This document shows, piece after piece, positions 550-45,896 of a DNA stretch of 64,000 nt. The stretch covers positions 1 through 64,000 of IMG/VR virus record IMGVR_UViG_3300031251_000003. One strand, given 5' to 3'. The notes beneath the pieces are model-generated. The model made no database searches and was not told the DNA's origin. It saw nothing but the letters and a program-made list of their open reading frames with translations. Each line of letters starts with the position of its first letter. The stretch's first letter is position 1. The position numbers and the translations under genes were made by a program. The DNA comes from a virus.

Positions 550-1210
550 AGTATTAGACCATGGTTTTATACGGTTAGATGGATTGATGGCCGATGATCT
601 CAGTGTAGTGAATTCGGCCCGTGTGTCGTTTGGTTCAAGGCATACAGAGATTGAAGAGGGTGACGAGAAACTTATTCAGTTTCTACTTCGGGAACGGCAC
701 GGAACCCCCGTAGAACACAATGCGTTCAGGTTCCACGTCAAGGCTCCTATCTTCGTGTTTCGTGAATGGCAGCGCCATAGGATTTCGAGCTACAACGAAC
801 TGAGCGGTCGTTACAAGGTCTTCGAGAACCCGGATTTCTATATTCCCAAGGAGTTCCGTACTCAAGTGGGTAAGCCGGGTCAGTATACGTTCGAGAAGTG
901 GCAGGGGAATACGCAGATGGCTCAGACTGTCTTTCTACGTCATTGTCAGGACGCCTACGACCTTTATAAGTGGGCAGTGGATTCAGGGATGGCCAAAGAA
1001 CAGGCACGTCTTGTACTGCCTCTGAACCTCTACAGTGAGATGTATTGGACAACGAACTTGCGATCAATCATGAACTTCCTGAGTCTTCGTAACGATAAGA
1101 ATGCTCAGTGGGAGATTCGTGAATATGCTAGAATAGTTGAAGAGATCGTAACCGAGCATATGCCTCTAACAATGGAGGCATTCCAGTTAGGAGGTAGAGT
1201 TGCTCCGTAA
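530..1210 (+). CDS. thyX: FAD-dependent thymidylate synthase ThyX
   Basis: VNSARVS, HGTPVEH, REWQRHR..SYNELSGRY, EQARLVLP, LRNDKNAQWEIR motifs; SD GAGG upstream. Confidence 0.97.
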   Translation: MINEEIRVLDHGFIRLDGLMADDLSVVNSARVSFGSRHTEIEEGDEKLIQFLLRERHGTPVEHNAFRFHVKAPIFVFREWQRHRISSYNELSGRYKVFENPDFYIPKEFRTQVGKPGQYTFEKWQGNTQMAQTVFLRHCQDAYDLYKWAVDSGMAKEQARLVLPLNLYSEMYWTTNLRSIMNFLSLRNDKNAQWEIREYARIVEEIVTEHMPLTMEAFQLGGRVAP

Positions 1211-1472
1211 ACCTCCTGTAGGGATCCGTCTTGCTGAAGATGAACTAGTGTATTTCGACGCCCCTACTAACTTTTCAAGTACACAGAGAAACAATAGTTA
1301 TGTTTCGGGATATCGGGATGGTAAAGGTAATATCGTAAAGGATCCAGAAGGTTATATTCGAAACGGGTGGAGTATTTATGATTATCTTTTGGGTTTTGAA
1401 GATGGTCAGGGAGATCGACTCAATATTAGACCAGATCCACCCCGAATCACTGGTAATAAAAGAAGTATATAG
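1200..1472 (+). CDS. small YxxGYxDG-repeat (RMF-like) family protein
   Basis: YVSGYRDGKG...YLLGFEDGQGDR; GGAGG upstream. Confidence 0.7.
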   Translation: MLRKPPVGIRLAEDELVYFDAPTNFSSTQRNNSYVSGYRDGKGNIVKDPEGYIRNGWSIYDYLLGFEDGQGDRLNIRPDPPRITGNKRSI

Positions 1473-1486
1473 ATGGGAGGTAAAAA

Positions 1487-1582
1487 TTGATTCTTAGACT
1501 TTTAGTATTGTGGTATAGGCTTAACTATTGGTGGTTACGCCAACGCCAACAGGCAAAATTTAACTGGACGCAACGTGGGTAA
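1487..1582 (+). CDS. Trp/Arg-rich micro-ORF (31 aa)
   Basis: TTG start after GGAGGT; MILRLLVLWYRLNYWWLRQRQQAKFNWTQRG; overlaps tdk start. Confidence 0.5.
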   Translation: MILRLLVLWYRLNYWWLRQRQQAKFNWTQRG

Positions 1583-2144
1583 GTTAACTGTTATCTGTGG
1601 CCCTATGTATTCGGGTAAGTCAGAAGAGCTTATGCGTCTGTTACGTCGATCCGAAATTGGTGGTAAATCCACCATTTTGTTACGTCCAGACTTCGATGAT
1701 CGATATGACAAGGAGAAACTTGTCTCTCATGCTGGTGCTGTCTATCGTTCTTTCTCGGTTGCGCCGATAGCTCCCAAGATCTGGGCCAATGGTCAGTTCT
1801 TTGATGTTGTGGGGATCGATGAAGTTCAATTCTTCAATAGAACAGATGATGGTACGACTGTCGAAGAGGTAATAGGTTGGCTCGTTGATAGAGGAAAGGA
1901 TGTAATTGTTTCTGGATTAGATATGACCTATCGCCGTGAACCATTCGGTTGTGTCCCTAATCTTATGGCTATGGCCGATACGGTGATCAAGCTCGATGCT
2001 GTATGCCATAAGTGTGGTGGAACTGCTACACTAACTCAGAGGCTCATCGATGACCAACCTGCACCGTTCACCGGGCCAACTGTGCAGGTTGGCGGTTTAG
2101 ATACCTACGAGGCTCGTTGTAAAGAGTGTTGGGAGAAAGGATGA
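1575..2144 (+). CDS. tdk: thymidine kinase
   Basis: GPMYSGKSEEL P-loop, GIDEVQFF, SGLDMTYRREPFG, C-terminal CHKC...YEARCKEC zinc site. Confidence 0.97.
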   Translation: MGKLTVICGPMYSGKSEELMRLLRRSEIGGKSTILLRPDFDDRYDKEKLVSHAGAVYRSFSVAPIAPKIWANGQFFDVVGIDEVQFFNRTDDGTTVEEVIGWLVDRGKDVIVSGLDMTYRREPFGCVPNLMAMADTVIKLDAVCHKCGGTATLTQRLIDDQPAPFTGPTVQVGGLDTYEARCKECWEKG

Positions 2145-2380
2145 AATCAGAGAGTCTAAGAGTAAAAGTAGTTAGCAATCCAGCTATTGAAAAACGGCTA
2201 GATTGGATTACCAATATAATGCTTAATCTAGATGGTGATGATCTTGATTACTTCATCGGTTATTGGGATGGATTCGCCGGAAAGAGTAAAGATACCGATT
2301 GGAACAACATGGCCCCATATGAAATGGGTTATTTAGATGGGAAGGGAGATCGTGAAAACTACAAAGGTTTGGTTCCCTAG
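2141..2380 (+). CDS. small YxxGYxDG-repeat (RMF-like) family protein
   Basis: YFIGYWDGFAG...YEMGYLDGKGDRE; ATG 2141 overlaps tdk stop. Confidence 0.7.
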   Translation: MKSESLRVKVVSNPAIEKRLDWITNIMLNLDGDDLDYFIGYWDGFAGKSKDTDWNNMAPYEMGYLDGKGDRENYKGLVP

Positions 2381-2384
2381 CCCT

Positions 2385-2393: not shown

Positions 2394-2395
2394 AA

Positions 2396-16546: not shown

Positions 16547-16798
16547 ATGTCAGAGACAGAGATCAGAAAGATAGCCAATGTAGAGTTCGACGCTGAAGAG
16601 CAGAAAGCCAACAGTGCGCTCATTGAAGCGATGCAGATCATCATCCATGATTGGAACCTCTACGAGGGTAATCGTTCCGAAGTAGCGGCGGCTATTCATA
16701 CTCTTCAGTTGTTCATCATCCAGCACATGCTACAGCGGGTTGGAGCCAACGGCTTCAACCCTTGGTATGGAAGGGATGCTGAGGATGTTCAAACGTAA
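16547..16798 (+). CDS. hypothetical helical protein
   Basis: GAGG SD. Confidence 0.7.
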   Translation: MSETEIRKIANVEFDAEEQKANSALIEAMQIIIHDWNLYEGNRSEVAAAIHTLQLFIIQHMLQRVGANGFNPWYGRDAEDVQT

Positions 16799-17048
16799 GA
16801 AAAGATGTAGTGTCTGTGGAAATTCAAATTCTTACATCTTTAGCCCTAATGATGATGTTTGCCATCAATGCAAGTGGAATAAGATAGAATCATCTCTATT
16901 TGACGACCAGAATCAAGATTACTTCTATAACATGGGATATAAAGTTGGTCGTGGAGAACATCTTCCGATGATTAACGTTCCGACCCCTTTCAAGTCTCAG
17001 TATGAGATGGGGTTGAAGGACGGCGAAGGAGATCTATATAGCTTATGA
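16785..17048 (+). CDS. zinc ribbon + YxxGYxDG-repeat (RMF-like) protein
   Basis: CSVC...CHQC; YNMGYKVGRG...YEMGLKDGEGD. Confidence 0.7.
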   Translation: MFKRKKRCSVCGNSNSYIFSPNDDVCHQCKWNKIESSLFDDQNQDYFYNMGYKVGRGEHLPMINVPTPFKSQYEMGLKDGEGDLYSL

Positions 17049-18762: not shown

Positions 18763-18913
18763 AGGTTTATTCATAGGGGCAGCACTGGTCGGTGTATTAT
18801 CCGCTCTAATGGCACTAGCTCTTGGATTCAACGTCTGGTCTTGGCAGTGGTGGCTCATCTGGTTTGTTTCGACCGCGTTTTATGAACTTGGTTACTTCAT
18901 CGACAGGGACTAA
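18752..18913 (+). CDS. small membrane protein (2 TM)
   Basis: Hydrophobic MPFKGLFIGAALVG...WWLIWFV; GGAG SD. Confidence 0.65.
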   Translation: MPFKGLFIGAALVGVLSALMALALGFNVWSWQWWLIWFVSTAFYELGYFIDRD

Positions 18914-19137
18914 TGCATTCCATAGAGTGGATCTCACGTCCTGCGTTTCCTTCTGGTAAAAGATCTTGGAAGCAAGATCTTAAAGATGATATCTATGTTG
19001 CGGGGTATAACGACGGTCGTAATGGAATTGATATGAGGCAGGATTATTACAAGTACCCTGTTATTCAAGCTATTTTTGAAATGGGATGGGAAGATGGTTG
19101 TGGTGATCTTGAGCTTTACAGAGATATCGATATGTGA
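18913..19137 (+). CDS. small YxxGYxDG-repeat (RMF-like) family protein
   Basis: YVAGYNDGRNG...FEMGWEDGCGD. Confidence 0.7.
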   Translation: MHSIEWISRPAFPSGKRSWKQDLKDDIYVAGYNDGRNGIDMRQDYYKYPVIQAIFEMGWEDGCGDLELYRDIDM

Positions 19138-19143
19138 TATAAT
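19115..19143 (+). promoter_or_regulatory. sigma-A-type promoter TTTACA-N17-TATAAT, leaderless
   Basis: TG-extended -10; GTG start 6 nt downstream. Confidence 0.75.
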
Positions 19144-19149
19144 ACATCT

Positions 19150-20022
19150 GTGAGCGACGAAAGGACAGAGATGAGCACCACCGCCGTTTATACCCATGAC
19201 TCCAAGGGTCACCGTGTTGATGTCCATGCCCCGAGCAATATCGTTCCGGGTGACTACGAGTATCGTGGCGTCAAGGTCAACCGCAAGGATCCCGTCAAGG
19301 GTGGCCCTGCTGGTACCTGCCATCATTGTGGCAAGGCCATCGTGTGGGAAGTCCTCTGGCTTCATCGTCCCTCTGGCAATCTCGTCACCTTCGGAGAGAT
19401 TTGCACCCAGATCCTGGGCATGAGTGACAGCCGTATCGAACACGAGATGGTGCTTCTGAAGCGCCGTGCCGAGAACGAGCGGGCTGCTGAGCGGGCCAAG
19501 ATGGAGAAGCAGGAGAAGATTGACGCATTCAAGGCTGAGCAGCCTGAGGTTGTCAAGTTCCTGACTGACCTGGACGCCAACGATAGCTTCTACTTCCTGG
19601 TTGAGATGAAGCGCTCGCTGGATCATTGGGGTGGGCTGACTGAGCGCCAGGTTGCTTCTGTCAAGAAGTGCATGGTTGCTCGTGAGTCCTACAATGCCCG
19701 CAAGATTCAGGAGGCTATCGATCAGAGCATCGCTGGCCCTACTCCTGAGCTTCAGGAGGGTCGCCGGGTAATCGAGGGCGAGGTTGCCTCTCACAAGTGG
19801 CAGGAGAGCATGTACGGCGACACCCACAAGATGCTGGTCAAGCAGGATGACGGCAACAAGGTGTGGGTCACGGTTCCTCGTGAGATCAGTGACTACGTTC
19901 ATGAGAACGATGTCGAGCTTAAGGGTCTTCGCGTCCGCTTCACCGCTACGGTTGAGCGCAGCAAGACCGATGACAACTTCGGATTCGGCTCGCGGCCCAG
20001 CAAGGCATCGGTGGTCGTATGA
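19150..20022 (+). CDS. early protein with zinc site and C-terminal OB-fold-like domain
   Basis: CHHCG...G..C; IEGEV...KMLVKQDDG..VW...VRFTATV...FGFGSRP; strongly C/G-ending codons. Confidence 0.75.
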   Translation: MSDERTEMSTTAVYTHDSKGHRVDVHAPSNIVPGDYEYRGVKVNRKDPVKGGPAGTCHHCGKAIVWEVLWLHRPSGNLVTFGEICTQILGMSDSRIEHEMVLLKRRAENERAAERAKMEKQEKIDAFKAEQPEVVKFLTDLDANDSFYFLVEMKRSLDHWGGLTERQVASVKKCMVARESYNARKIQEAIDQSIAGPTPELQEGRRVIEGEVASHKWQESMYGDTHKMLVKQDDGNKVWVTVPREISDYVHENDVELKGLRVRFTATVERSKTDDNFGFGSRPSKASVVV

Positions 20023-21474: not shown

Positions 21475-21895
21475 TATCCAAGAGATACGAGATTGGATCA
21501 ATTGGGCTTGTGAGGCTGTAGAGACTTATGGCCAAACAGGTGTTGAACCAGTTCTTGAAGCTCTTACCGAAGTTGAGACTCAACTCAGAGAGTATGAACA
21601 CGCTCTCGGTACAAGGTCGCACTTGCTTCCCGATGATATGGTCTGTGAATGTTTTGACCTAACGGGTAGCCGTCAGGTTCGTGTCTACGAGATGTGTACA
21701 AGATGCCAAGCTCTAATGCTATCAGATGATAGCCTAGAACTGCGTACAAGGCTGTCTAACGCCGCCCAAGATTCTTTCCATAAGATGACTCAATCAAAGG
21801 GGAATCAAGAGTATCAGGCCCGCCATTGGGGACGTTACCATGCATTCCATGATGCTATCAGAATGTTGGATGGCAACGAGGTAGAGAATGTCTGA
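21458..21895 (+). CDS. hypothetical protein
   Basis: Operon-coupled ORF; CEC...CTRC. Confidence 0.6.
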   Translation: MSGKTNIQEIRDWINWACEAVETYGQTGVEPVLEALTEVETQLREYEHALGTRSHLLPDDMVCECFDLTGSRQVRVYEMCTRCQALMLSDDSLELRTRLSNAAQDSFHKMTQSKGNQEYQARHWGRYHAFHDAIRMLDGNEVENV

Positions 21896-22229
21896 TAACT
21901 GGCCCATCCAAAGTATAGGTGGAGAGCGCCTGCCTTTGAATGTACCCGAGTACTGGACTCCAGATGGTCTATATCAACAGGGGTATCTTGAGGGCAAGAA
22001 GGGCCGTTTCGCTGGTGCTACAGATCTTCGGGGTGTACCCGAGGAATTCCTCATGGGACTCGAAGATGGTCATGGTGATTGGCTCGCAGAGTTTGATGGA
22101 ACAGTAAATGTAAATGACAATCAATTGCAATCCAAACGTGTAGAGAACTTCATGGCCAAGTGTAATCCTGGTCAGCACAGCTACGATGCTAAAGACACCT
22201 GTACTAAATGCGGCTGGGAGTTTAGATGA
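21888..22229 (+). CDS. YxxGYxDG-repeat (RMF-like) protein with C-terminal zinc ribbon
   Basis: YQQGYLEGKKG...FLMGLEDGHGD; C...H...CTKC. Confidence 0.7.
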   Translation: MSDNWPIQSIGGERLPLNVPEYWTPDGLYQQGYLEGKKGRFAGATDLRGVPEEFLMGLEDGHGDWLAEFDGTVNVNDNQLQSKRVENFMAKCNPGQHSYDAKDTCTKCGWEFR

Positions 22230-23967: not shown

Positions 23968-24276
23968 ATGCGCTACAGCTTTGTGGAGTTGGAGTCTGGT
24001 GATCAAGAATATTTCGATGATGCCTACTCAGCATTTAGATTCGCCAAGGATCAAGAGCATAAGAAGAGAAACTCTGTATCATTGGTCGCTGTTGGGAAAG
24101 AGTATGACCCCGACACTATCGATGAATCTGAGTGGATTAACCTAGCAAGCGATATGACTGTCTATAGGGGTCAGATGCTTCGTCATATGATCCGCAGTTT
24201 AGACAACACAGTGGCTTGGCTAAGAACACAAATTGAAGAGCAGAGAAATGCAGCAGAAGAAGCAGGCGATTCATGA
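23968..24276 (+). CDS. hypothetical protein
   Basis: GGGAG SD. Confidence 0.65.
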   Translation: MRYSFVELESGDQEYFDDAYSAFRFAKDQEHKKRNSVSLVAVGKEYDPDTIDESEWINLASDMTVYRGQMLRHMIRSLDNTVAWLRTQIEEQRNAAEEAGDS

Positions 24277-36200: not shown

Positions 36201-38386
36201 ATAGCCTCTGGAAATACTATAGCGGTTGGTATCAGAACCATCTACCCACAGACTTTATAGAGTCTCATAAAACAGCTACTCAACTAATACCCATTGATTT
36301 GGACGATTCATCTTGGCATTCCGAACCCGCTTGGATCTATGATCCTAATAAGGATCTTCTTTACGTTTCTACCGGAGCCAGTCACCACGCAAGACTTTTC
36401 CATAGTATCCTTGGAGATGACTACGGAGACACAGATGCGATGAAGACCGGTTGGATCGATCTGGATAACAACTATGTAGCCTTTGTTGACGAGGATGAAG
36501 AATCGGCATTCGCGAACAATATCACGGCCATATTCTCTCGTTATTACGATAGGGAAATGAAGCCCATTGATGGAAATACTTGGATGGCCAAGTATGGATC
36601 AATAGAGTCTCATAAACAGGGTGCCAACATAGGGGAACCTGACCCGAACAATCAAGGGAAGTTCATGGAAGGCAGTCAGCCATTTATTTACTACAATGGC
36701 GATTTCTATTGGGGTAAGGGCGCTGAACACCATCCCGATATTCTACGAACTAACATGCTTTATGGTAAGACTCCATTATTAGCTGGTTGGGTTAACTTTC
36801 GCAAGAAAGAAATCGGTCTATGGTCGGGGAACGTTACACAGGATCGTACCATCGAAGATGAGGTAGCCCGACAACTACAAGAGCAGTTCCCGGATTTCGC
36901 TATAGATAAAGGCTTTCGTTTAGGGGCGGTAACCTCTTGGAAGATCGAGGTTCTCCCCGAATCGACTGGACGGAGAATAGATGACAGAGTAGCCTGGGTA
37001 GCAGATCAGGATTCTCATACAATCTATATCGGGGATGGTTGGTTCCATGGAGATATCTTCAAGCAGATTGGAGAATTAAATGTTGATCATGCCGGAGATT
37101 TACATTGGAGACAAGACAAAACATCAGCATTATTGGCAGGAAGTATCTGGAAGAATAACATCTTACTCTACGGAAAATCGGGTGAATGGAACCCGTCTGA
37201 TGAGGCAGAAGTCTACGACACTATAAAGGACTGGTATCGGGAAGAAAGGAGCGAAGATGTGTCCACCCATCAGCTTCCAAATGTCCACGCAATGTACCAA
37301 CAAAGTCGAGTGATGGATATCGATGATCCGATCAACGGTAGACCACAAGAAAAGCCCTTCAGTTTCATCTACTACAACGGCGATGTATTCGTTGGATACC
37401 TCCACACTCACCCGATGCTTGTCTCCGATATGGCGGGTATGGGAATTAAGATATTAGATAAAGCCAACACAGCGGCGGGTTGGGTAGATACAGCTAATCG
37501 AGTAGGTATGTTCTACTCCTTTGAACAGCAATGGCTAAATCGTAGTAGTGAAGAAATCCAGCAGATTCAAGCCAACGAAGAAGATGCCAAGAGGCAGTTG
37601 GAGTCATGGGTACCGGGATTGGAATGGGTAAACCCCAATGATTATCTCAGACGAACCACAGCAACAGAGTGGAACTACCAGAGTGCTTTCTGGTATAGCC
37701 CTAGAACGGGACTACTCACAGGTAAAGCTGCCCACTGGCAGCTAATCGGGGATGCTCTAGCTAATCTCCCCTACGAAGAACGAGAAACTATAATGCAGCA
37801 TTCTTACTTGGGTTGGATCTTCGAGTCCGAGGGAGGCAAAGAGAAGGTAGCCGTTCCTGCATCAGTGGAACACAACCTTGACCCTACTCTTGAAGAAGAG
37901 GCTAGAGAGGCTTTGAAACAAGAGGGAATCACCCTAGGTGATCCACAACCGGGGATGTTCCAGTTCGATAGCGAAGATTATCCCGCTGAAGACTATCATC
38001 TTGGACGTTTAGCAACTGAAGTAGTCGATATTCCCGAAGTTGAAGAGGAAGACTATCAAGAAAGAACCCGTAGGAAGCCTTTTGTCTACAGTCCGAGGGA
38101 AGATAAGCTCTATATTGGCCCTTATGGGAGTCATCATGTGGAATTAATCTGGAAAGCATTCGGAATGAATGATGATCCTTCGACCCCTGGTTTCGACGCC
38201 AGAGAGGAAATAGCGATGAATATCGAGGACGATCCGGGCAATCTTGGGGTTATTTTGGTAGATCAGGTCACAAATGCACCATATTTAGTACATTGTTTCG
38301 GTGATCCGAGCGATAAATGCCTCGAAGCCTTGCGTTCTACCTTCCCCGGTGTTAGAATAGAAGACGAGAACTGTGAGGTTATCTAA
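24248..38386 (+). CDS. giant (~4,700 aa) modular polyprotein: ~37 His-containing repeat modules, 2 transglutaminase/papain-like domains, HNH nuclease, zinc finger
   Basis: Uninterrupted 14-kb ORF (ATG 24248; TTG 24233 alternative); repeated (P)F/W-I-Y-x-P-x-x-D-x-L-Y-I/V-G...H-x-x-L/I...G-W/R-I modules separated mostly by K/R-x-A. Confidence 0.9.
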   Translation: MQQKKQAIHEDLINQIRDNLTPDLLKPEFRDQPFPVGHCYVSSEALYHLLGGRESGLRPMRLRMPDGVVHWWLETPEGEVIDPTHDQFGESVPYEQGKSGGFLTREPSRRATELMNRISSTESDELAHNLMDELAWVSKERGGLDKSNFLGDDSPERATPYVILNNQMYVAPRQYHYDLADYLEKKNGFTREQLRDGYWGWIRPNENTSFEHSDMLKDNNWHDPEMVKRLYPSAIDITKAPVDDAPSDPLKGYEQRRSSSWKESVNAQGWIYDPATDKFITGNTWHGGLLEQLFDKPWPYIDRSELDKLVYGWFGHPASGKDPVAIYSDNFGSTATEEQKQRGLQLAKEYYEENAAQNIESKVAFETEPDPPDPGHYVVTFVYYADGTLETEVDRSHAHMINEYIAQHGYDRREFMLNMMPVLGWVFSIDNQLYAVFASQGYNVQNNTLESEREETLVALSKRFDKPVRETDYQEWMANQQWEAIVGESSVQKTAFDQAFVYANDHLYVANKPHPAIMRANGIDPSTPLVAGIIKDTPTGDGPLWMTFFSWSQNFDDPELQDRARQAIEHEYGKFPTEVSYDDMVKIDNEIGQHRNEMRPQADNRMNERWDDHEKACPFVWMNGMVWIGDELSGHNGFATDRPDMYAEWSRLMNESEHTTWSRDQRDALMWFGRVFPDGEVVAWNDQPVPENIQNDIRNEAQKQGFEMMSAALPHIYVVNTGDSYHQSGLPFIYVPDNDAIYLGETMAPHIELIKNNEDLNGYVRPEEYTTGNGYLAGRIDRNGDVLFFNVPGSVYNPQTEQTVLTTLKSQWPAIQDLDGLQEEDDDPINNWPGSHTYPVHSIISKLANEEPEIIVDPSVNNSHIPDFNQMEVIYIYDPGTNKLVISRGLHAAAIQQYFGGPRPEDRQYGNMIAGYGSLDAGWVCVTGDLLRNDWVTEQVDRVLENISSSDHVASVRLIDIPVTGQQYDWAWNNGQRPILYHAPSDTLYVGTRNRHHGELIRQIYNQGQAEADDWDTLQNNKDYLLGSGLPSGETKWFTMRDSERNALIPQANQQWQDYFTHRTAEVQVQNPVSYNYVPLTPNELTAFDSLDERKQTTYYRQAQRLNARAEKAGVPGKIRGRDLAALMYRYDGRCAYDGTPGADSFDHVIPLSRGGSNTVDNLLPAHTQCNAELNDWDQKLTPIPTAITLSPDWLNVPAVAKVATVVKELLFTDDDVDERDGDRHWAKWFYYAPTDTLYWWPTTSENDGMPSHAQGIKEAFPEEDWLEMWDSGDLTFGYKTPDQLYAYDFNDRYPEKDIHAAQIASEFFDMPTNLSPERFASSNNIQFVDTEGGMYHGMGFPFLYDIRDDILYFGTTSTYHVQLLQDMQANDQDYYDDYKGNTKPLVGGRYNPEENPPDRIYLYNYRNDPIVSNRIRELVNEAIQTPEFQQIYENDSHHMSAWNPGDTAWVYDPETKQLHSGQYHGEIIRSMNLPRDYNWDQFVYGWYPRTDEEFTDSYIAPESVDHPDEQEALVAAQREFANRTARTAGVVYLDVPSTGFGGMNPEDTYPAIYDPEVDTLYVGTLPETSHAELIRNSPLGHMMNDKGHGYNMDHLGFAWIYPTQDPHDPGYEAVSWTAAIPSKLLQEAVKGLRTGKTSERKEDEAHEQLQLDTKVAESQWIMSGFYWPDNNAVDISMPGQGHTGLMAEQEYTSEFMRKQNWVPFQVFHDSRDKFYYVVVGSDWVNGGSYDLPPEGEEAIREQIQVNTDEPVYFEGDMVTSKVASSVEYVHVPEDLRREWEPDSIRGNARPWLLVNDTYYIGSLGTGHAELVYAGNLRDESIDYSDTGVITDASELLDIYGYRSYPIQGSKFFVIPFNDEALAEELARLMIDHTDEMIKSTKTALQNHIPNPGYTEWDSRAGRYAWVLLSDGRILFSKEGGSHQSIAVDHEFGREYDSFGKGTTYGQLFDKNGEIEVEIFTFTGGGSNQPPEEIKEKVKAAFMDHKDDSWYGKVAMPGGGYCYLCYNDPKIKNKQGMHPVTHWDWVIDELHPDPKPSQIGLCDMHHWILQTEGIDGWKQIFPLRRQPVMSSTIVEVRTLGSAEEDVADSRPIIYDPETDTIYIGGYGGYHSELMDSEEMGGKNWRGMAFGRFSGFDHFKWYMNQDRIPDLANVEEQIQAEARVHSNLAEQMGWTIEDLGPSDHSHELLQWDVDQDRLAWVADLTTKTIYIGEGWMHREIFKRMLNMNIEHAGDMSFSGLDVDDIAAGSTMEDDPSKMEFYEWGKNWDQYELNELREILQDYITDDHIKTAVELDKTEAGWPSGYEWYTSWLYVPDTGQLLIKNKRDVNHTMLIVEEPQLMQEIREGVEIVPGLILKNNHNQYGILSMYSDKWDGSNILHPGANEEAVKAVQDWAAANTHWGDLPVVNTEDSRISSFNHINYVNVPEFNYHGDGVPWILLNNGDIYMATESCFHRELIWAIDPDDNYKNISSNIAAAGRVENGVVKTYWGPDRANVSNEVLRALKEGALNEDERGKIATVVDDLSSQFPASASEAEEPWSYWKYIYDNDTDTLHVWKTKYEDGDPIHAAAFREIFGPDTYNHNFRNSEARFAWGHGYENGYELYGHHSTPDVNAHAEAALAYFINSFQQETSKTAGEYTPMVKGIRGRWILLHDGTVLSDDDPGTIHAQILLDNGATPDQIKDIGFDDVSLRKYIDNYYTFYNNVKQDQERQRNSSTDQWDNIQPVDDSCYLVAADLSHEYPELHYEAGQYGDQGEHAWLRMDDGTIIDPTHGQYDESKPMNIVKPNDPAQKLYKSWATNPNMTTDWNNYPEEFMDDPDDPLHWLFRGKPGHPHSGPDEFDGAMAPKTAGWEQQQLNPDAQYIWVRGNKTTVAAPTWYSHGSLIQWLRDHNEEPLSTGNMSLGKDLPANTVVLLWEDDETGDKYSKASSTVTVRDDPHPKSFIWTYDVNKDHFTVGNRDWYHTRYWPSTDGGVVCGGVNPDGVWSYDDSTNKTTPSEAKALMQNLLDQGLQEQLTNKTSAVVPNPTEPWNDPAWLKQWQDREDEGGFYGDHREIANPYIPFLVMEDGRTWIGWDYASHAYEWMVDEAEEELNIDYNAMKDSQGSINFADQEYEVHWPNHGLHRELEQQIVTEIVNDVEDERKRAFERGRLDDKTAWVKTATRVDVSNPEDLTQWRCGLWVYDEKQDHLVLAPYFSHYPFHAKLIRDYMWDFEPNDRDYEALVAGQWWLRNNDLVVAEIYPDDNEIEGPMKDMIEGYISEHLQTETTAGLNGDLPDNLRNIPLTENEGWWGTYITDVPVSTDRLSRDVLTTSPTPLSRRDEQLTHRNSAYINTHESQGLTYTSSYASDPTTPHEYTSNITSALGLDTMRHTNTPIGKYPHQGCPSRVPPWHKREYLSANGEVPEVEDTGARTASDTPWWVVAEPGEEPNQIAWVADLNTRTVYVGEWHGEIFKSLMGLNYDHTTDEQAEETPNLATGRSWTQFYGTEMSREQIKEMLQAIHDYYEQRAYHFSTDIFPRVEDIQASPNSKLTALFEDINGTTAFAWSPEQLIQGHNHRFIIMKIRDQGLDPNDFTYGWKNGDHFYIHSWDHQDFQAEHQILECKKALEAMGLHDEDGPSFQDTGKVTGTLEQQIHPGWGGQSLIYFRGKQYSAPTHAQNFRKLIGDGASSEEILHEGIPGARYLDPGAQRRIGKVAAINEIPVETAGMHPWGDEPFIYYAPTNTVYVATKSGRHGDIMRWIQDHDPETFALITDRSTGLDAFKNIFYGEFVPLHEWRGEVESGEIDYFTASGSRLTSDEVPEELKQWAEARWGNVTSKVIESHPSLHIVDVDNYSSRIEGLERPVLQREGDSNLYVGLYGGGHWDLASVAGIPFDNILTQGWIDESGEFNAYSITTEAYDTLENAGYNPVSKNWERTIEDKVESHLSGIQLTQPNEPRDIDNPGVRWIKTQDGTYYTDEEEPVMTHAHLVHRYKIPLDKIVDVGVDDDSLWKYYSGWYQNHLPTDFIESHKTATQLIPIDLDDSSWHSEPAWIYDPNKDLLYVSTGASHHARLFHSILGDDYGDTDAMKTGWIDLDNNYVAFVDEDEESAFANNITAIFSRYYDREMKPIDGNTWMAKYGSIESHKQGANIGEPDPNNQGKFMEGSQPFIYYNGDFYWGKGAEHHPDILRTNMLYGKTPLLAGWVNFRKKEIGLWSGNVTQDRTIEDEVARQLQEQFPDFAIDKGFRLGAVTSWKIEVLPESTGRRIDDRVAWVADQDSHTIYIGDGWFHGDIFKQIGELNVDHAGDLHWRQDKTSALLAGSIWKNNILLYGKSGEWNPSDEAEVYDTIKDWYREERSEDVSTHQLPNVHAMYQQSRVMDIDDPINGRPQEKPFSFIYYNGDVFVGYLHTHPMLVSDMAGMGIKILDKANTAAGWVDTANRVGMFYSFEQQWLNRSSEEIQQIQANEEDAKRQLESWVPGLEWVNPNDYLRRTTATEWNYQSAFWYSPRTGLLTGKAAHWQLIGDALANLPYEERETIMQHSYLGWIFESEGGKEKVAVPASVEHNLDPTLEEEAREALKQEGITLGDPQPGMFQFDSEDYPAEDYHLGRLATEVVDIPEVEEEDYQERTRRKPFVYSPREDKLYIGPYGSHHVELIWKAFGMNDDPSTPGFDAREEIAMNIEDDPGNLGVILVDQVTNAPYLVHCFGDPSDKCLEALRSTFPGVRIEDENCEVI
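35697..36613 (+). repeat. four identical 11-bp repeats TAGAGTCTCAT (35697, 36003, 36258, 36603) at module junctions
   Basis: Read directly; encode I/V-E-S-H. Confidence 0.8.
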
Positions 38387-40233
38387 TGTTGACGACACGT
38401 AGGCCAGTAATCCCACCTAAAGGCGGTGTAGCTTATTGCTACCTCGATGGGAACATTTACTATGAGACAGAAGGATCTCATATGGAACTCGTACGACAGA
38501 TGCTTGACCAGGGGATTCCTAGATCAGCACTCGATGCATACGATCCGGGGTACAGCGCCATCTTTGGTTATATCTGGAATACAAGTGATACAGAAGAACC
38601 AAAATATGTAAATGATCAATACTCTGATATCTACTCTAACACGAAGGATCCACAGAAGACAGCGGAACTGAATTCTAAGTTACGTGCTTTATTTCCAGAC
38701 ATCACAACAGACACCAGTGGCCCTTACTTCGAGCCAGTAAAATGGACATTGAGCCACATTTCTGATACAATAGATCCAATGTCCGATATGACACCTATTG
38801 AGACGGCTATCCAAGGAGAACCTGCGGCTTCCATGGCTATTCGTGCGCTGAATCAAGCAGGCGGACGGGTATTTGTCGTTGGTGGTGCAGTTCGCGATGC
38901 CATCCTGGGTCACGCACCCAAGGACGTAGATCTCATGGTTCAAGGTCTGGATGGCGATGCTATCGAGAATGCGCTTAAGGGTCTGGGTAGACTGGACTTT
39001 ACGGGCAAGCAGTTCGGTGTGTATCGCTTCAAGAGTGGAACCTCTGAGGTAGAGATTGCTCTGCCCAGGACTGAGGTTTCTACTGGCCCTGGCCACCAGG
39101 ATTTTCAGGTTACCACAGATCCTAACTTGGATCCCGAGCAGGATCTGGCCAGGAGAGATTTCACCGGTAACGCTATGGCATATGAGCCTGCAACCGGTCA
39201 ACTCATCGACCCTTACGGCGGTGCAGAGGATCTTAAGAATGGTACTTTGTCACTTGTAAATGACAAGGCATTCGAGGATGACCCTCTCCGTGTCGTTCGT
39301 GCATTGGTTGCTAATGCGCGGTTCGGCCTTGAGCCGGATGAGCAGCTTAAGCAATCACTGGCCGATAACGCTCAGAAGATCAAGCATCTTCCGGGTGAGA
39401 GAATTCAGGCAGAGCTTGATAAGCTCCTGTCTGCCCCTGACCCTGCTAAGACGATCAGCCTTGCGGAGCAGAGTGGTCTGATCCCGTATCTGTTCCCTGA
39501 GCTAGAGGCGGCTGTTGGATTCGATCAGCACAATCCTCACCACGATATGAACGTCTTCGATCACACTTTGTCGGTGCTGAAGAAGATGTCTACACTTAGC
39601 AACGATCCTGATATGAGACTCGCTGCGCTGTTCCACGACTCCGGTAAGCCCGAGTCGTACTGGAATGACGAAAATCACGGTGGCAACGGTGGTGGCCACT
39701 TCTACAAGAAGGTACTCCACGACGGAACTGTCATTGGTGCCGACCACGAGGATGTGGGCGCACGTAACGTTCGGGCATTCATGACGAGGATGCGTTACCC
39801 TAAGGATCGTATCGACCGTGTAGAGAAGCTGATCAAGTTCCATATGTGGAACTACTTCAACTCCGAGAAGGGAGCGAGGAAGTTCCTCCGTGCTCTGGAC
39901 GGCGATACCAAGATGGCCTTTGATCTTCTGGCTATCCGCGAAGCCGATTCAAGTGGTAAAAGAGACGGAGAGCCGAACAACTACGATAGAGAGATGATCG
40001 ACAAGGATCGTCAACTACTCCAAGATGTAATTGCTGGTCATGATGCCGGTGAACAGCACGCATTCACGATTAAAGATCTGGCCGTCAATGGTCACGATCT
40101 GATCTCTCTTGGTCTAAAAGGCCCGGAAATTGGTAAAACTCTGAACTATCTGCTCGATCTGGTCATTGATCATCCTGCTCTGAATGAGAAGGAAACACTC
40201 ATGAAAGTAGTCGATGAGGGTGTCCGGGTATAA
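38386..40233 (+). CDS. cca: CCA-adding tRNA nucleotidyltransferase with HD domain and N-terminal His-module
   Basis: VGGAVRD...KDVDL, DLARRDFT.NAMA, EDDPLRVVRA, ERIQAEL, HT...LFHDSGK. Confidence 0.92.
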   Translation: MLTTRRPVIPPKGGVAYCYLDGNIYYETEGSHMELVRQMLDQGIPRSALDAYDPGYSAIFGYIWNTSDTEEPKYVNDQYSDIYSNTKDPQKTAELNSKLRALFPDITTDTSGPYFEPVKWTLSHISDTIDPMSDMTPIETAIQGEPAASMAIRALNQAGGRVFVVGGAVRDAILGHAPKDVDLMVQGLDGDAIENALKGLGRLDFTGKQFGVYRFKSGTSEVEIALPRTEVSTGPGHQDFQVTTDPNLDPEQDLARRDFTGNAMAYEPATGQLIDPYGGAEDLKNGTLSLVNDKAFEDDPLRVVRALVANARFGLEPDEQLKQSLADNAQKIKHLPGERIQAELDKLLSAPDPAKTISLAEQSGLIPYLFPELEAAVGFDQHNPHHDMNVFDHTLSVLKKMSTLSNDPDMRLAALFHDSGKPESYWNDENHGGNGGGHFYKKVLHDGTVIGADHEDVGARNVRAFMTRMRYPKDRIDRVEKLIKFHMWNYFNSEKGARKFLRALDGDTKMAFDLLAIREADSSGKRDGEPNNYDREMIDKDRQLLQDVIAGHDAGEQHAFTIKDLAVNGHDLISLGLKGPEIGKTLNYLLDLVIDHPALNEKETLMKVVDEGVRV

Positions 40234-40417
40234 TATACACGACATTTTAGTTCGCCGTGGTGCTCACTTTGCAAATCCAGAGGACTGGTGGTATTGGGCC
40301 GGATGGCTCGATGTTCTCTATGGTAAATGTACAATCAATTACCCAAAGCAACTATCCTACGCCAGGGCATATGAAATGGGTATGGCTGATGCTAAAGGTG
40401 AATTATGTATAACTTAG
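40214..40417 (+). CDS. small YxxGYxDG-repeat (RMF-like) family protein
   Basis: YWAGWLD...YEMGMADAKGE. Confidence 0.7.
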   Translation: MRVSGYNIHDILVRRGAHFANPEDWWYWAGWLDVLYGKCTINYPKQLSYARAYEMGMADAKGELCIT

Positions 40418-40590
40418 ATCAAGTTTCCATGTTTAGACAACTTTACACAGGCCCAGACTTCTGGTATTGGACTGGTTGGATGGACTATATTAGTTATGGG
40501 AATGTTCATCGACCCAAAGAACCTGAGAATCTTACGGCTTATCTGATGGGATATGCCGACGCGAAGGGTGAAGACTATGGCTGCACCTAA
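40405..40590 (+). CDS. small YxxGYxDG-repeat (RMF-like) family protein
   Basis: YWTGWMD...YLMGYADAKGE. Confidence 0.7.
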   Translation: MYNLDQVSMFRQLYTGPDFWYWTGWMDYISYGNVHRPKEPENLTAYLMGYADAKGEDYGCT

Positions 40591-40846
40591 TCCATGGCGG
40601 AAGAGTCTCGAAGAGATTGGTCAACTTCAACCTATAACCACAAACAAAGACCCTAATCTGCTGAATGATTGGTGGTATTGGGAGGGGTGGAAAGATGTTC
40701 TTAACGGAAGGAAGGATTGGTTTACCAGTCCTCAGAACAAGGGGGACTATAAGGCTTACGATGATATCTTGGTTAGCTATCGATTAGGTCGCGCTGATGC
40801 TTCAAGAGACGAGCTATGTGAAGCAGACGATGCTAACTACACTTAA
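40577..40846 (+). CDS. small YxxGYxDG-repeat (RMF-like) family protein
   Basis: YWEGWKD...YRLGRADA. Confidence 0.65.
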   Translation: MAAPNPWRKSLEEIGQLQPITTNKDPNLLNDWWYWEGWKDVLNGRKDWFTSPQNKGDYKAYDDILVSYRLGRADASRDELCEADDANYT

Positions 40847-41067
40847 GGTCGAGGATCGACTAGATATGTCTTCATATATGCACCATGATCAAATCCATCA
40901 TCATACGCTTGCTGAAAGACATCCCACGGTGCTGGGAGTGCTCTCTTCACGAATCCTTCTTGACCGTCCGTGACTCCGTAGTTATACCATGTTGAAGGTA
41001 ATGGCATCGGTGTGTCGGCGGCGAATTCTAAGTCTGAAGTGTTCGGATCGAATAGAGGTTGTCCCAT
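40843..41067 (-). CDS. small YxxGYxDG-repeat family protein (minus strand)
   Basis: YNYGVTDGQEG...YDDGFDHG; preceded by TAATAGATG-AT-ATG. Confidence 0.65.
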   Translation of the reverse strand: MGQPLFDPNTSDLEFAADTPMPLPSTWYNYGVTDGQEGFVKRALPAPWDVFQQAYDDGFDHGAYMKTYLVDPRP

Positions 41068-41069
41068 AT

Positions 41070-41091: not shown

Positions 41092-41526
41092 ATGCTTAAC
41101 ATGGAAACTCCCGAAGAAAGATATGACAGAATGACTCAGGGAATCGATTTTGACCCCGCAGATCCATCAAATGATGCTTTTTATGTTGGTGGGTATTACA
41201 TAGGATACCGAAGAACTGATTGGCATCCTTCATGGGATACGTCGCCATCTCTTCCCCAATATAGGGCTGCGTGGGAAATGGGGCAAGAAGACGGGAAGGG
41301 AGATAGGCAGCTTGCGGAAGAGGAAGAGTTGTGTTATACTGTGGAGAGATATGCAACGGATGACGAAATGAAGGAAGGTCTTCCTTTGGGGTACCATATC
41401 GTAGATTGGGGCACCGGTACACATGGACTCTACATGAATGGGTTCACAAACCCTAAAACCGGTTCGTCTCTAGCTGCTACTGGTGATAAAAATGCACTTG
41501 AAGCTCTGGTGAGGAAGTTTTCATGA
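41092..41526 (+). CDS. YxxGYxDG-repeat (RMF-like) protein with C-terminal extra domain
   Basis: YVGGYYIGY...WEMGQEDGKGDR. Confidence 0.65.
   Translation: MLNMETPEERYDRMTQGIDFDPADPSNDAFYVGGYYIGYRRTDWHPSWDTSPSLPQYRAAWEMGQEDGKGDRQLAEEEELCYTVERYATDDEMKEGLPLGYHIVDWGTGTHGLYMNGFTNPKTGSSLAATGDKNALEALVRKFS
41312..41340 (+). promoter_or_regulatory. possible intragenic sigma-A promoter TTGCGG-N17-TATACT
   Basis: 17-nt spacer and TG extension, but inside a CDS with no leaderless in-frame start. Confidence 0.35.
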
Positions 41527-41997: not shown

Positions 41998-42723
41998 ATG
42001 GGTATTAGAGTAACCAAGGTTCTAGGTTATGGACTCACTGATGTAAAGATCCGAAAGTACAATATCGCTGACGGGCGCATCAATACAAAGAGTCCACTCT
42101 TAGACTACAGTAGCAAGAAAACTCTTGATGACTACATCGATTGGCTCAATACCAAACAACAACAGGATCAAGAAAAATTCTATTTCAACATGGATGGATA
42201 TCTATTCAAGGAACGAGAAGAAGAGGGATTCAAGTGGAACGATAGAACAGGTGCCTTTAGCCCTCAAGATCTCTGCCATCATGGAATCGAGTACATGATG
42301 AAGAATGTACTGCTAATTCGTCCTCTTTCATGTAAGGATTGGAATAGACACGACGATATCATGGATTATATAGAGGAAACCTCTTTTAAGGACGTTGGTG
42401 ATACCGATTACAGTGCCAATTGGGTTAAAGAGATCCCCGGTGGTATCTTTCCTTATAGCGGCTCATTCATGGATGCTAGAACGGGTGAGAGAGTCAAAGA
42501 CGGTATCACACTCTATAGGTATCTAACCTGGCCCTCATATAGTTCTTATCTCCGAGATGAAGCCTGTCAAGAGTATGGATTCAACGATATCGCTGACGCT
42601 TATAAGAATCTAGTTCCCATCGTCCCCGATGAGGTTCGGGATCTATGTGAATGGGGTAAACTGTTCATCGATGATGATGTCTGGAAGCAGCTTCGCCCAC
42701 TATTGTACTGCTACTGGTCATAA
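41998..42723 (+). CDS. hypothetical phage protein
   Basis: GGAGG SD; MGIRVTKVLGYG...LRPLLYCYWS. Confidence 0.75.
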   Translation: MGIRVTKVLGYGLTDVKIRKYNIADGRINTKSPLLDYSSKKTLDDYIDWLNTKQQQDQEKFYFNMDGYLFKEREEEGFKWNDRTGAFSPQDLCHHGIEYMMKNVLLIRPLSCKDWNRHDDIMDYIEETSFKDVGDTDYSANWVKEIPGGIFPYSGSFMDARTGERVKDGITLYRYLTWPSYSSYLRDEACQEYGFNDIADAYKNLVPIVPDEVRDLCEWGKLFIDDDVWKQLRPLLYCYWS

Positions 42724-42980
42724 TGGGTACGACTTATAGCGAAGTTCTACAGACTTTGACCGATACGTCTCTTAGAGATGCTGACTCAAGGTACTATCTC
42801 CATGGATATATCCGTGGTAGATGGGGAGATGTTCAGATTGTGATGTTCCCGCCAGATAATCATAAAGCTGCATGGGAAATGGGCTTGAAAGATGGCGAAG
42901 CTGATGCCCATCCTATATACGAATACATTGCTATATATGAAGATAATGAAGCTTACTCACATACACAGAGGATAGGATAG
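42723..42980 (+). CDS. small YxxGYxDG-repeat (RMF-like) family protein
   Basis: YLHGYIRGRWG...WEMGLKDGEAD. Confidence 0.7.
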   Translation: MGTTYSEVLQTLTDTSLRDADSRYYLHGYIRGRWGDVQIVMFPPDNHKAAWEMGLKDGEADAHPIYEYIAIYEDNEAYSHTQRIG

Positions 42981-43372: not shown

Positions 43373-43395
43373 GATGCAGTTCCGCATGGTAATAT

Positions 43396-45546
43396 GTGAT
43401 GAATTCAGTAAAGAGCAACGTCTTTGATCCCATCCAACCTAACTTAGATCAAGTTATATTTAATGGCACGGATCTTAGGCCAAGTGTAAACAAATTTGTC
43501 CAAAAGATCTACTATCATGCCCTGAATCGTAAGCTTGGTGTGACGGGTAGGGATTGGGCACACCTGTATCTCACTGGCAGCCTAACAACTTACCAGTATT
43601 CGGCTACTTCTGATGCCGACCATAGTGTTTTCCCTGACTATGACAGAATTTGGAAGCATCTCAATATAGATCCGCATGATGCTCGTGTCATGTTGGTAGA
43701 GATGTCTATCGATTACCTAGATGGTATCTTCATTCCCGGAACCCTTCATCCTATCCAGTTCTTTGTCGAGAGTCCAGGGGTTGTACCGACTGATAAGTTT
43801 CGCCCAGGACTCAGATCTGCATATGATCTTTTGGATCGAGAGTGGTTTGTAAAACCAGAAAAGGAACGAGCACACAGCGTACAGGATGAATGGCCGGATG
43901 TCTATGAACGAGCTTCAGAGATAGCCGACAAGATGACTACTATGCTTGATTCTGGTAACTACGATGCGGCTCAGAACCTGTGGATTACAGTACACAAGAA
44001 GCGACAATTGGATCAGCAGGCCGATCTAGGAGATTTCTCTGAAGGCAACATCACCCTCAAGCTACTCTTGAATCGTGGCCTTATTGATCGTCTCAGAAAT
44101 GAAGTTGGATTGAAAATCCAGACTAAGGTAGGAACTCTCTATAATCCTTTGGATTCAAATAGGTTTAAGGCGGTGTTTGCCTTTGGTTATGATCCTGAGT
44201 CTGATACATTAGTGGCTGACAGAACTCATTACAGTGTCGTAAAAGAACTTATAGGGAAACTTGGTGCTCCCAAAGAAGATACTCGTGGTTTTGCAATGAG
44301 GATAAAACCCGTGCTAGGCTGGGTCTATCAGGACTACAATACAGGAGATCATGCACCAGATTGGAAAGTTGAGTTTGCCTCAGATCTCTATGACCAACAG
44401 GCTGGCTGGTCTGAAGCAAGGAATCAGCAGGCTCTAGAAGCCCTCCAACGAGAGAACCCTAACGCTAACATCACGTATGCGGGCCAGAGCGATTACAAGA
44501 ACCCAGATGATACCTATGAGTATCACGAAGCTACTCTCCACACAAGTATGCCGCCGTGTTGGCAGGCACCACAGTTCTTCGAGGATTATCAGAAGAGCTA
44601 TACACCTGAAGTAGGGGAAACTACAGAGGTTAGAGGCTATGATTGGGAAGTTGATTATGCCCGACTCTTCAAGCTTATTCACATGAAGACCTGGCCGCTA
44701 AAGAACATCGACGTAAGATTACTAACCCCGGAACACAAGGACTGGAACCAAATTTATGGGTATTACGAAAACGGCAAGATCTGGATCCATCCGTTCCTAA
44801 CTGCTGCTGAGGCTAGTGAAACTCTCTGGCACGAGATCCAGCATCAGTATCAGGATCAAGAAAAACGAAGACAATACTACAACTACAACGTCCCAAGGCG
44901 TAATTTCGATTATGATGTATCTGAGGAAGAACATGATCCTAGTCAATATGAAGAGCATCCCGACGAGATAGACGCAAATATGTTTGCTCAATTCATGAAT
45001 ATGGGAGAGCAAGCTTCTACGTTCTTGGTTGTGCCTATGCCGCCCAAGTACGATCCAACCTGGGTTCCCAGAGAACTACACCTGGATCGAGGCGAGTGGG
45101 ATGAACAGAACGAACTCTATGCCTTAACCCCGGAACAACTCAAGTCCGAAGAAGACGCACAGGTAAAGCTCTTCCGTACCGACTACAGTTTTTGGCAAGA
45201 GACTTGGGTTTCCGAAGAGAACTTTAGATGGAGTATCGTTGCTGCATTACCAGAGCTTTGGGAAGATCGAGTAACGACCAAGGTTATCTGGGATTGGGAC
45301 AAGGATCGTATCATCCTTGGGACAATGGCTTCATTGCCACAACTGCCTAACTCCAAGATAGTAGGAGAATACCATGACGGCAGGGTCACCTTGTTTGAAG
45401 CCGAGAAGCAATGGATCTCTCCTGTGTATTTCCGACGGCTCTGGCATAGTTCTTATCCTGATAAGGAACTGAAGGATGTTTACTTCCGTCGAGGTACGGG
45501 AGATGAGTATAAGTTGAGAAGTCTACCAAGGAAGCGAAATGTCTAA
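43396..45546 (+). CDS. multidomain protein: Pol-beta-type nucleotidyltransferase + His-module + HExxH zincin-like domain
   Basis: LYLTGSLTTYQYSATSDAD (hG[S]x9DxD); FGYDPESDTLV...THY...LGWV; LWHEIQH...E. Confidence 0.8.
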   Translation: MMNSVKSNVFDPIQPNLDQVIFNGTDLRPSVNKFVQKIYYHALNRKLGVTGRDWAHLYLTGSLTTYQYSATSDADHSVFPDYDRIWKHLNIDPHDARVMLVEMSIDYLDGIFIPGTLHPIQFFVESPGVVPTDKFRPGLRSAYDLLDREWFVKPEKERAHSVQDEWPDVYERASEIADKMTTMLDSGNYDAAQNLWITVHKKRQLDQQADLGDFSEGNITLKLLLNRGLIDRLRNEVGLKIQTKVGTLYNPLDSNRFKAVFAFGYDPESDTLVADRTHYSVVKELIGKLGAPKEDTRGFAMRIKPVLGWVYQDYNTGDHAPDWKVEFASDLYDQQAGWSEARNQQALEALQRENPNANITYAGQSDYKNPDDTYEYHEATLHTSMPPCWQAPQFFEDYQKSYTPEVGETTEVRGYDWEVDYARLFKLIHMKTWPLKNIDVRLLTPEHKDWNQIYGYYENGKIWIHPFLTAAEASETLWHEIQHQYQDQEKRRQYYNYNVPRRNFDYDVSEEEHDPSQYEEHPDEIDANMFAQFMNMGEQASTFLVVPMPPKYDPTWVPRELHLDRGEWDEQNELYALTPEQLKSEEDAQVKLFRTDYSFWQETWVSEENFRWSIVAALPELWEDRVTTKVIWDWDKDRIILGTMASLPQLPNSKIVGEYHDGRVTLFEAEKQWISPVYFRRLWHSSYPDKELKDVYFRRGTGDEYKLRSLPRKRNV

Positions 45547-45724
45547 AGTACCAGACATTCTGGCTCAGGATACTAGATCTTATCATTATGCGGTAGGCTA
45601 TTCTTGGGGTTATGGGAATGACCATACTTCTGAGATGTTGGTAAGCTACTTACAGACAGCAACTAAAGATTGGTTAATGGGTTACGCAGATGGGAAGGGG
45701 GATCGTGAAAACTCCCAATTTTAA
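45539..45724 (+). CDS. small YxxGYxDG-repeat (RMF-like) family protein
   Basis: YAVGYSWGYG...WLMGYADGKGDRE. Confidence 0.7.
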   Translation: MSKVPDILAQDTRSYHYAVGYSWGYGNDHTSEMLVSYLQTATKDWLMGYADGKGDRENSQF

Positions 45725-45896
45725 CCTAGATTACTATTGGACAGTCAAAGGAGATTTCTATTCGACTAGTTACGTTGCAGGATATATGAGGGGTCGTTGG
45801 GACTGCGCACTTCCTGATGAAATTGAACCGCTGATACATAGTCCTTTTGGAGTGATGGGTCTTGCCGATGGACGTGGAGATAAAGAATATGACTAG
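45705..45896 (+). CDS. small YxxGYxDG-repeat (RMF-like) family protein
   Basis: YVAGYMRGRWD...VMGLADGRGDKE. Confidence 0.65.
   Translation: MKTPNFNLDYYWTVKGDFYSTSYVAGYMRGRWDCALPDEIEPLIHSPFGVMGLADGRGDKEYD

Follow-up and report, generated by a model that had tools for sequence, protein, structure and literature searches.

A 16-copy family of small acidic phage proteins with a probable RMF-like hairpin core

Members and coding status of the family

The stretch of DNA analysed here, referred to below as the window, comprises the first 64 kb of the 158,106-bp IMG/VR phage record IMGVR_UViG_3300031251_000003, which is complete according to CheckV. Its genes are tightly packed and lie nearly all on the plus strand. 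Dispersed among them are small open reading frames (ORFs) whose products share a doubled motif, and it is these proteins that we describe. A first-pass annotation of the sequence had listed 13 such ORFs as a family of small helical hairpins resembling ribosome modulation factor (RMF). All 13 open where that annotation placed them, with start codons that are identical to those of independent gene calls in the protein database.

A full-length alignment showed that conservation is limited to a core of approximately 42 residues, and that the N-termini are unrelated, as had been proposed. The core consists of the motif Y-x-x-G-[YW]-x-D-G-x-x-G, a loop of 18–29 residues, and the motif [YWF]-x-M-G-x-x-D-G-x-G-D. 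One Tyr and two Gly residues are invariant and an Asp is nearly so. A profile of the core was searched against the six-frame translation of the whole 158-kb genome and gave 16 matches with E values from 8e-18 to 7e-8, the next match having E = 1.3. Three of these 16 copies fall beyond the window, at 67563-67931 (minus strand), 128765-128971 (plus strand) and 156754-156993 (plus strand). The loop contains a Pro in 14 of the 16 copies, and there is no conserved Cys. The paralogues are otherwise only 20–40% identical, yet they keep the D-G-x-G-D tip of the second motif.

Several further tests bear on whether this is a family or a set of chance resemblances. In a leave-one-out profile test, 15 of the 16 copies outranked every non-member (E = 9e-12 to 4e-3). 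The second-motif pattern occurs 12 times in the genome as against 0.1 times in residue-shuffled six-frame translations, an enrichment of about 100-fold, and the double motif is found in 15 segments as against 0.24 in shuffled translations. Purifying selection was seen in two orthologous pairs. Defined as proteins that carry both motifs in order, separated by a loop of 18–29 residues, and that give a significant match to the core profile, the family comprises 16 copies and makes up about 7% of the gene count of the phage. Judged from their sequences, the ORFs are coding and form a true paralogous family. The 13 copies within the window are as follows, with leave-one-out E values where these apply.

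1200..1472, plus strand: family copy, 90 residues; TTG start preceded by a GGAGG-like site; 11-nucleotide overlap with the ThyX stop; E = 3.9e-5
2141..2380, plus strand: family copy, 79 residues; ATG overlaps the thymidine kinase stop; E = 1.8e-7
16785..17048, plus strand: family copy, 87 residues; N-terminal CxxC...CxxC zinc-ribbon-like stretch; E = 1.2e-7
18913..19137, plus strand: family copy P0002, 74 residues; modelled with AlphaFold2; E = 8.9e-12
21888..22229, plus strand: family copy, 113 residues; C-terminal Cys-rich tail; 8-nucleotide overlap with the stop of the preceding gene; E = 4.4e-3
40214..40417, plus strand: family copy of the Trp-rich subfamily (WWYWAGW), 65–67 residues; first after the cca gene; E = 8.4e-12
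40405..40590, plus strand: family copy of the Trp-rich subfamily, 53–61 residues; alternative start at 40429; tandem duplicate of the 40214 copy (51% identity over 41 residues)
40577..40846, plus strand: family copy of the Trp-rich subfamily, 89 residues; longest loop (29 residues); E = 6.3e-4
40843..41067, minus strand: probable divergent family copy, 74 residues; gene conserved in the related phage contig L009
41092..41526, plus strand: family copy, 141–144 residues; hairpin at residues ~30–77 fused to a C-terminal module; E = 3.1e-8
42723..42980, plus strand: family copy, 85 residues; start adjoins the stop of the preceding 241-residue gene; E = 7.8e-9
45539..45724, plus strand: family copy, 61 residues; overlaps the stop of the 716-residue gene 43396-45546; L009 has a member at the same position
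45705..45896, plus strand: family copy, 63 residues; GTG start; tandem to the 45539 copy; E = 1.6e-4

The copy that fails the leave-one-out test is the minus-strand ORF 40843-41067 (E = 2.3). A 54-sequence family profile built without it nevertheless matches both it (E = 0.014) and its orthologue (E = 0.007), and it matches the 67563 copy by BLASTP with E = 3e-4. The orthologue is an ORF of contig L009 that is 60% identical to it without gaps and occupies the same place in the same orientation. Differences between the two genes are distributed 19/19/41 over the three codon positions and dN/dS is approximately 0.2, which indicates purifying selection. The ORF is thus a real gene, and probably a divergent member of the family.

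The copy at 18913 abuts an upstream ORF of 68 residues. It is overlapped by a 322-residue ORF on the minus strand (18934-19902), which was considered as a rival to it and rejected as the antisense shadow of a 290-residue plus-strand gene at 19150-20022. The antisense ORF would mislead a gene map made from longest ORFs.

Two further first-pass statements need qualification. Zinc ribbons had been attributed to two members, and the Cys patterns can be read directly in both (CxxC...CxxC in 16740-17048 and C...CxxC in 21888-22229), but Pfam gives them sub-threshold support only. A Cys/His tail is also present in the 67563 copy. Translational coupling to upstream genes is suggested by the fact that 11 of the 14 plus-strand copies start no more than 10 nucleotides from the upstream stop, compared with 40% of other genes, although starts were taken as those of the longest ORFs, so that the overlap counts are inflated.

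We also considered whether the family might be a mobile mini-gene, as had been suggested. The flanks of the copies share no DNA motif or repeat, and hence no insertion signature, beyond the null of random small genes; DNA similarity among copies is confined to the stretch that codes for the motif; and copies keep their positions in a related phage. These results leave the idea of a mobile element unsupported. Copies 2141 and 45539, whose proteins are otherwise diverged, share a 38-nucleotide stretch encoding the second motif with 89% identity (at approximately 2298-2335 and 45639-45676), which could reflect gene conversion or strong codon-level constraint.

Predicted fold and comparison with RMF

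The structure of P0002 was predicted using AlphaFold2 with 54 homologues. The model has a predicted local distance difference test score (pLDDT) of 85 and contains helices at residues 19–36, 43–47 and 49–73. The 67563 copy was likewise predicted to be a helix-loop-helix, with pLDDT 86.5. A homodimer prediction scored 0.01 against a mark of 0.42, a result that carries no weight either way.

Sequence and structure comparisons, made by independent routes, lead to RMF as the nearest fold and motif pattern, in agreement with the first-pass suggestion of a family of small RMF-like hairpins. When the core profile was searched against 177,635 Protein Data Bank (PDB) sequences, the sole match at E ≤ 10 was Vibrio RMF (2jrm_A, E = 0.04), with both motifs in register. 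The same register was obtained with hhalign when the 54-sequence family alignment was compared with 104 RMFs gathered from E. coli rmf (P = 0.009). Foldseek with the P0002 model placed RMF chains at ranks 2–4 with the highest probabilities, and with the model of the 67563 copy the sole well-fitting match was E. coli RMF (probability 0.90, template modelling (TM) score 0.61); RMF chains were the only well-superposed matches for both models, with probabilities of 0.4–0.9. In the ESM Atlas, RMF is the nearest named cluster, both by features (0.84) and by structure (TM 0.68/0.79).

RMF models are also among the commonest sub-threshold matches of the 54 family proteins, with eight matches to NF011162 (best E = 0.0012) and five to PF04957 (best E = 0.025). 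A narrow RMF profile gave a weak enrichment, with three members in its top 50 (P = 0.0014), and an 81-residue gene that adjoins the family in a related contig has a weak precomputed Pfam match to RMF. In the reverse direction, the six frames of the genome gave nothing at E ≤ 10 with PF04957 and nothing at E ≤ 1 with NF011162, and scans of single members against Pfam, PHROGs and NCBIfam assigned no family.

Among the residues of RMF that pack its helices together are G16, G20, G43, W40 and W44 (PMC8126665). In the hhalign register, G16 and G43 align with the two Gly residues that are invariant (100%) in the family, W40 aligns with Tyr, Trp or Phe in 95% of members, W44 with an aromatic residue or Leu, and G20 with Gly in 79%; G23 is matched by Gly in only 48%. 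The features of the RMF hairpin, namely conserved Gly (G16, G23, G43), stacked Trp (W40, W44) and a Cys-Pro loop, were judged to be represented in the family, with the reservations that its loop has no conserved Cys and that RMF was missing from the exhaustive structural search with the second model. It is very likely that the core is an RMF-like hairpin. We consider it probable, with less assurance, that the core is truly homologous to the group of proteins with the RMF/CrpP fold.

The resemblance to RMF of Gammaproteobacteria (PF04957; NF011162; PDB 4V8G, 6H4N, 9IOT, 2JRM) can be summarised as a helix-loop-helix of approximately 50 residues in which the aromatic-x-x-Gly-aromatic motif occurs twice and the loop contains Pro, together with the aligned Gly and aromatic positions just described. 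Unlike RMF, the family proteins are phage-encoded, occur in 16 copies, have variable N- and C-terminal additions and an extra D-G-x-G-D tip, and fall below the cut-off of every RMF model. The tip, invariant and acidic, lies on helix 2, where RMF has R-E-A-M-A-D-R. The charge is also reversed. The median isoelectric point (pI) of the family is 4.8 and every core has a net charge between -1 and -7, whereas the 104 RMFs have a median net charge of +6 and a pI of 10.5.

RMF contacts 16S rRNA through R3, K5, R11 and R45, of which R45 makes the anti-Shine-Dalgarno contact (PMC8126665). In the family, K5 aligns with Asp, Glu, Lys or Pro, R11 with Trp, Tyr, Asp or Arg, and R45 with Ala or Glu. Because the proteins are acidic and K5, R11 and R45 are replaced, ribosome modulation of the RMF type is disfavoured, and with the RMF model cut-offs unreached as well, the proposal that these are RMF-type ribosome modulators is not supported: an RMF-like function is unlikely.

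Small proteins of the Rmf/CrpP fold from phages and mobile elements (NCBIfam Rmf_CrpP and CrpP-related models) resemble the family in being small and phage-borne and in having an RMF-like hairpin; they differ from it in that the family has the motif signature Y-E-M-G-x-x-D-G-K-G-D and 16 copies per genome. Searched with these models, the 54 members gave one match (CrpP_rel_fam NF041856, E = 0.07) and no others at E ≤ 1, and ten window members searched singly gave none at E ≤ 10.

Related phages and genomic setting

The core profile was searched against 1.84 billion representative proteins and found 59 at E ≤ 1e-3, comprising 15 from this genome, about 40 small unnamed metagenomic proteins, and four bacterial repeat proteins. 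No match was found among GenBank phages (50,697 genomes), either by blastn with the cluster region or by tblastn with two members, and a family profile search of the Phabba, Skog and ScoobyDoobyDoo genomes found nothing. A scan of IMG/VR with the back-translated second-motif pattern gave three chance matches to unrelated proteins; a search for related loci with the cca protein gave one weak locus, which has no family members; and an additional word-indexed profile search added zero homologues.

Related contigs carry one to six family copies each, and show the family to be a trait of a clade. The most informative is L009 (56 kb), in which the order of genes is a giant ORF, cca, a member, a minus-strand member and a member, as in the window, with a further member after the homologue of 43396-45546. 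Five copies follow cca here and three in L009, and the 45539 position holds two copies here and one in L009. The plus-strand copies after cca in the two genomes are not mutual best matches. What is conserved is the position of the copies, not their number or sequence. The densest array is in a related metagenomic contig of 1.8 kb (L015:1-1820), where six consecutive ORFs are all members; two other contigs have two members (L014) and two plus a weaker third with E = 3e-4 (L020). Within the window, the Trp-rich copies 40214, 40405 and 40577 seem to have arisen by local triplication in tandem.

The minus-strand copy and the 67563 subfamily are the two stable lineages. For the latter we found 14 more orthologues; these carry, besides the hairpin, a conserved C-terminal β-rich Cys/His domain and in some cases additional zinc ribbons at the N-terminus. 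AlphaFold2 gives the Cys/His domain of the 67563 copy a pLDDT above 90; an exhaustive structural search with the model of that copy gave nothing for this domain, and a PDB sequence search with the subfamily profile also returned nothing. One orthologue of this type has a precomputed match to a topoisomerase C4 zinc finger. In copy 41092-41526, the C-terminal 60 or so residues are 34% identical to a separate 65-residue gene that follows a member in L009 (L009:10001-10450), so that a fusion or a split has taken place. In general, loops, tails and fused modules are variable among paralogues and are kept within orthologous groups.

The neighbouring genes with identified products are listed here; others are a DUF2201 metallopeptidase-like protein and a calcineurin-like phosphoesterase.

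530-1210, plus strand: ThyX, overlapped at its stop by family copy 1200..1472
1575-2144, plus strand: thymidine kinase, its stop overlapped by the ATG of family copy 2141..2380
38386-40233, plus strand: CCA-adding enzyme/poly(A) polymerase family gene (cca), with PolyA_pol, RNA-binding, HD and tRNA_NucTran2_2 domains
57251-59539: head protease domain, downstream of the genes above
60171-61139, plus strand: major head protein; approximately 50% identity with the head proteins of the Ceeclamvirinae Myrna and Phabba, both Mycobacterium phages, and of Gordonia phage Skog

The domains found in 38386-40233 uphold the first-pass reading of a cluster of five copies after cca, and the gene product is 62% identical to its L009 counterpart. 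Directly upstream of cca lies a single ORF of 4,717 residues (24233-38386, plus strand); its counterpart in L009 has more than 3,162 residues, occupies the same position and has no Pfam hits on record. A scan for promoter and terminator consensus sequences over 38–46.5 kb gave matches at or below chance level.

The identity of the major head protein to those of Myrna, Phabba and Skog makes the phage a distant relative, of lower guanine-plus-cytosine (GC) content, of those tRNA-rich myoviruses. The best explanation is that the owner of the family is an uncultured clade of myoviruses of approximately 150–160 kb that are distant kin of the Ceeclamvirinae. Rpf-type transglycosylase and NlpC/P60 domains on related contigs hint at an actinobacterial host. 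The GC content of the genome is 44–55%, far below that of the hosts of Myrna, Phabba and Skog. ARAGORN identified 46 tRNA genes and a tmRNA beyond the window, within genome positions 106276-124854. The tmRNA (116052-116374) has an unusually long, unrecognised tag of 23 residues that ends in LVAA.

Possible roles of the hairpins

We favour, with a probability of roughly 0.55, the explanation that these are accessory binding proteins forming a lineage-specific and expanding scaffold family, which is based on an acidic hairpin of the RMF type and has 16 copies per genome. Each protein would be built around one small acidic hairpin of two helices, in which the RMF-type scaffold is put to new use. 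The two motifs would pack the helices together through their paired Gly-x-x-x-Gly and aromatic faces, with the Pro-containing loop connecting the helices, and the residues conserved across paralogues would then be mostly structural core, together with the acidic D-G-x-G-D tip, which may be a shared contact site. The conserved residues do recur at i, i+3/4 and i+7 in each helix, placing them on one face, the interface, which fits the scaffold role. To this hairpin would be added modules such as zinc ribbons, the β-rich Cys/His domain, and the small C-terminal module that is separate in a relative, so that the hairpin could serve as a stable mini-scaffold or shared docking unit showing variable surfaces. 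As to binding targets and the role in infection, we infer that the proteins may bind other proteins or other positively charged partners during infection, rather than 16S rRNA in the manner of RMF. Duplication and turnover of copies are evident from the comparisons, and the family would have grown by duplicating in tandem and diverging at a small number of fixed sites in the genome.

Several observations weigh against this explanation. The matches of the 54 family proteins to Pfam PF04957 and NCBIfam NF011162 are all below cut-off, and the narrow RMF profile, searched against the six frames of the genome, lifts no member above noise (the best member ranks 14th, with E = 6). The individual sequence statistics for the link to RMF (E = 0.04 and P = 0.009) are marginal. 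An exhaustive structural search with the second model, that of the 67563 copy, found only generic hairpins matching residues 1–49, with RMF outside the top 50, and the two-helix hairpin is a simple and common arrangement. The strongly conserved D-G-K-G-D tip could moreover be a shared functional site rather than part of a scaffold, in which case a common ligand would be more likely than diversified targets.

The first alternative is that the family belongs to the translation machinery, as charge-reversed relatives of RMF whose role would be to bind proteins of the ribosome, to act as competitors of hibernation factors, or to adjust ribosomes to the translation kit of the phage. RMF is the closest fold, five copies directly follow the gene for the CCA-adding enzyme in an arrangement that is conserved in L009, the genome carries 46 tRNAs and a tmRNA, and the 81-residue neighbour gene in a related contig has its weak RMF match. 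Set against these are the acidic charge, the loss of the rRNA-contact residues, the failure to reach any RMF model cut-off, and the lack of an HPF partner gene in the genome. Other copies adjoin ThyX, thymidine kinase and phosphoesterase genes rather than translation genes. The nearest cultured relatives of the capsid infect Actinobacteria, which use a long HPF and are not known to have RMF. On balance this is unlikely, and it is kept at low odds because of the conserved linkage to cca and the phage translation kit. A more elaborate version, which we regard as slightly less likely still, is that the 16 hairpins are a toolkit that docks on the host ribosome, on hibernation factors or on ribosomal proteins, each paralogue serving a different state or partner; such a toolkit might act with the phage CCA-adding enzyme, the 46 tRNAs and the tmRNA to reprogramme or wake host ribosomes.

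The proteins might instead be ligand binders, in which the acidic D-G-x-G-D tip binds a metal ion or small signalling compound, with the copies serving as sponges or anti-defence proteins. The retention of this tip, which is absent from RMF, across such divergent paralogues speaks for the idea, and several copies of small acidic proteins in an accessory region are a typical sign of phage counter-defence. However, the tip is predicted with high confidence to be helical and not a binding loop, it is unlike the canonical DxDxDG calcium motif on direct reading, and searches of Pfam, PHROGs and NCBIfam revealed no likeness to sponge or anti-defence families already described. We therefore rate it as doubtful. 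Still less probable is a role as internal or assembly proteins of the virion, packaged in the head or chaperoning it: eight copies do lie between the 4,717-residue ORF and the head genes (the protease and the major head protein), but others lie close to the end of the genome and among genes of nucleotide metabolism, and no structural-protein family was matched. An origin as chance motifs in non-coding or overlapping frames, or as a selfish mini-gene that inserts after genes, would fit the very short ORFs, their frequent overlap with upstream gene ends and their unrelated N-termini, but is largely refuted by the gap of eight orders of magnitude between profile matches and noise, the roughly 100-fold excess of the motif over shuffles, the concentration of differences at third codon positions with dN/dS near 0.2, the orthologues kept on several related contigs, and flanks that hold no repeats or motifs beyond the null.

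What is new is the sequence family with its doubled motif and D-G-x-G-D tip, along with its expansion to 16 copies. If the scaffold explanation is correct, this is an undescribed protein family that has no Pfam, PHROG or NCBIfam model, in which a phage lineage took a minimal RMF-type hairpin, reversed its charge, multiplied it to about 7% of its genes, and fused it with zinc ribbons and small modules; the family would then offer a compact and evolvable scaffold. Automatic labels of ‘ribosome modulation factor’ on acidic phage genes with the RMF fold would deserve distrust. The conserved link to the cca locus in a tRNA-rich phage is a testable hint of a connection to translation.

Two further protein groups share a single-helix motif similar to Y-x-x-G-Y-x-D-G, namely the Alvin_2107 small protein of sulfur oxidisers (NF049856) and the DUF2799 (PF10973) repeat lipoproteins. 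NF049856 is matched by 16 of the 54 members (best E = 2.5e-5), all far below its 60-bit cut-off. In this genome its best match has 12 bits and covers positions 39–56 of the 59 in the model, and in one member the two halves align with an identical part of the model. These resemblances are weak, at the level of the motif, and limited to one helix. DUF2799 is a sub-threshold match in the bacterial repeat proteins that the family profile picked up, and a DUF2799 cluster is among the ESM Atlas shape matches.

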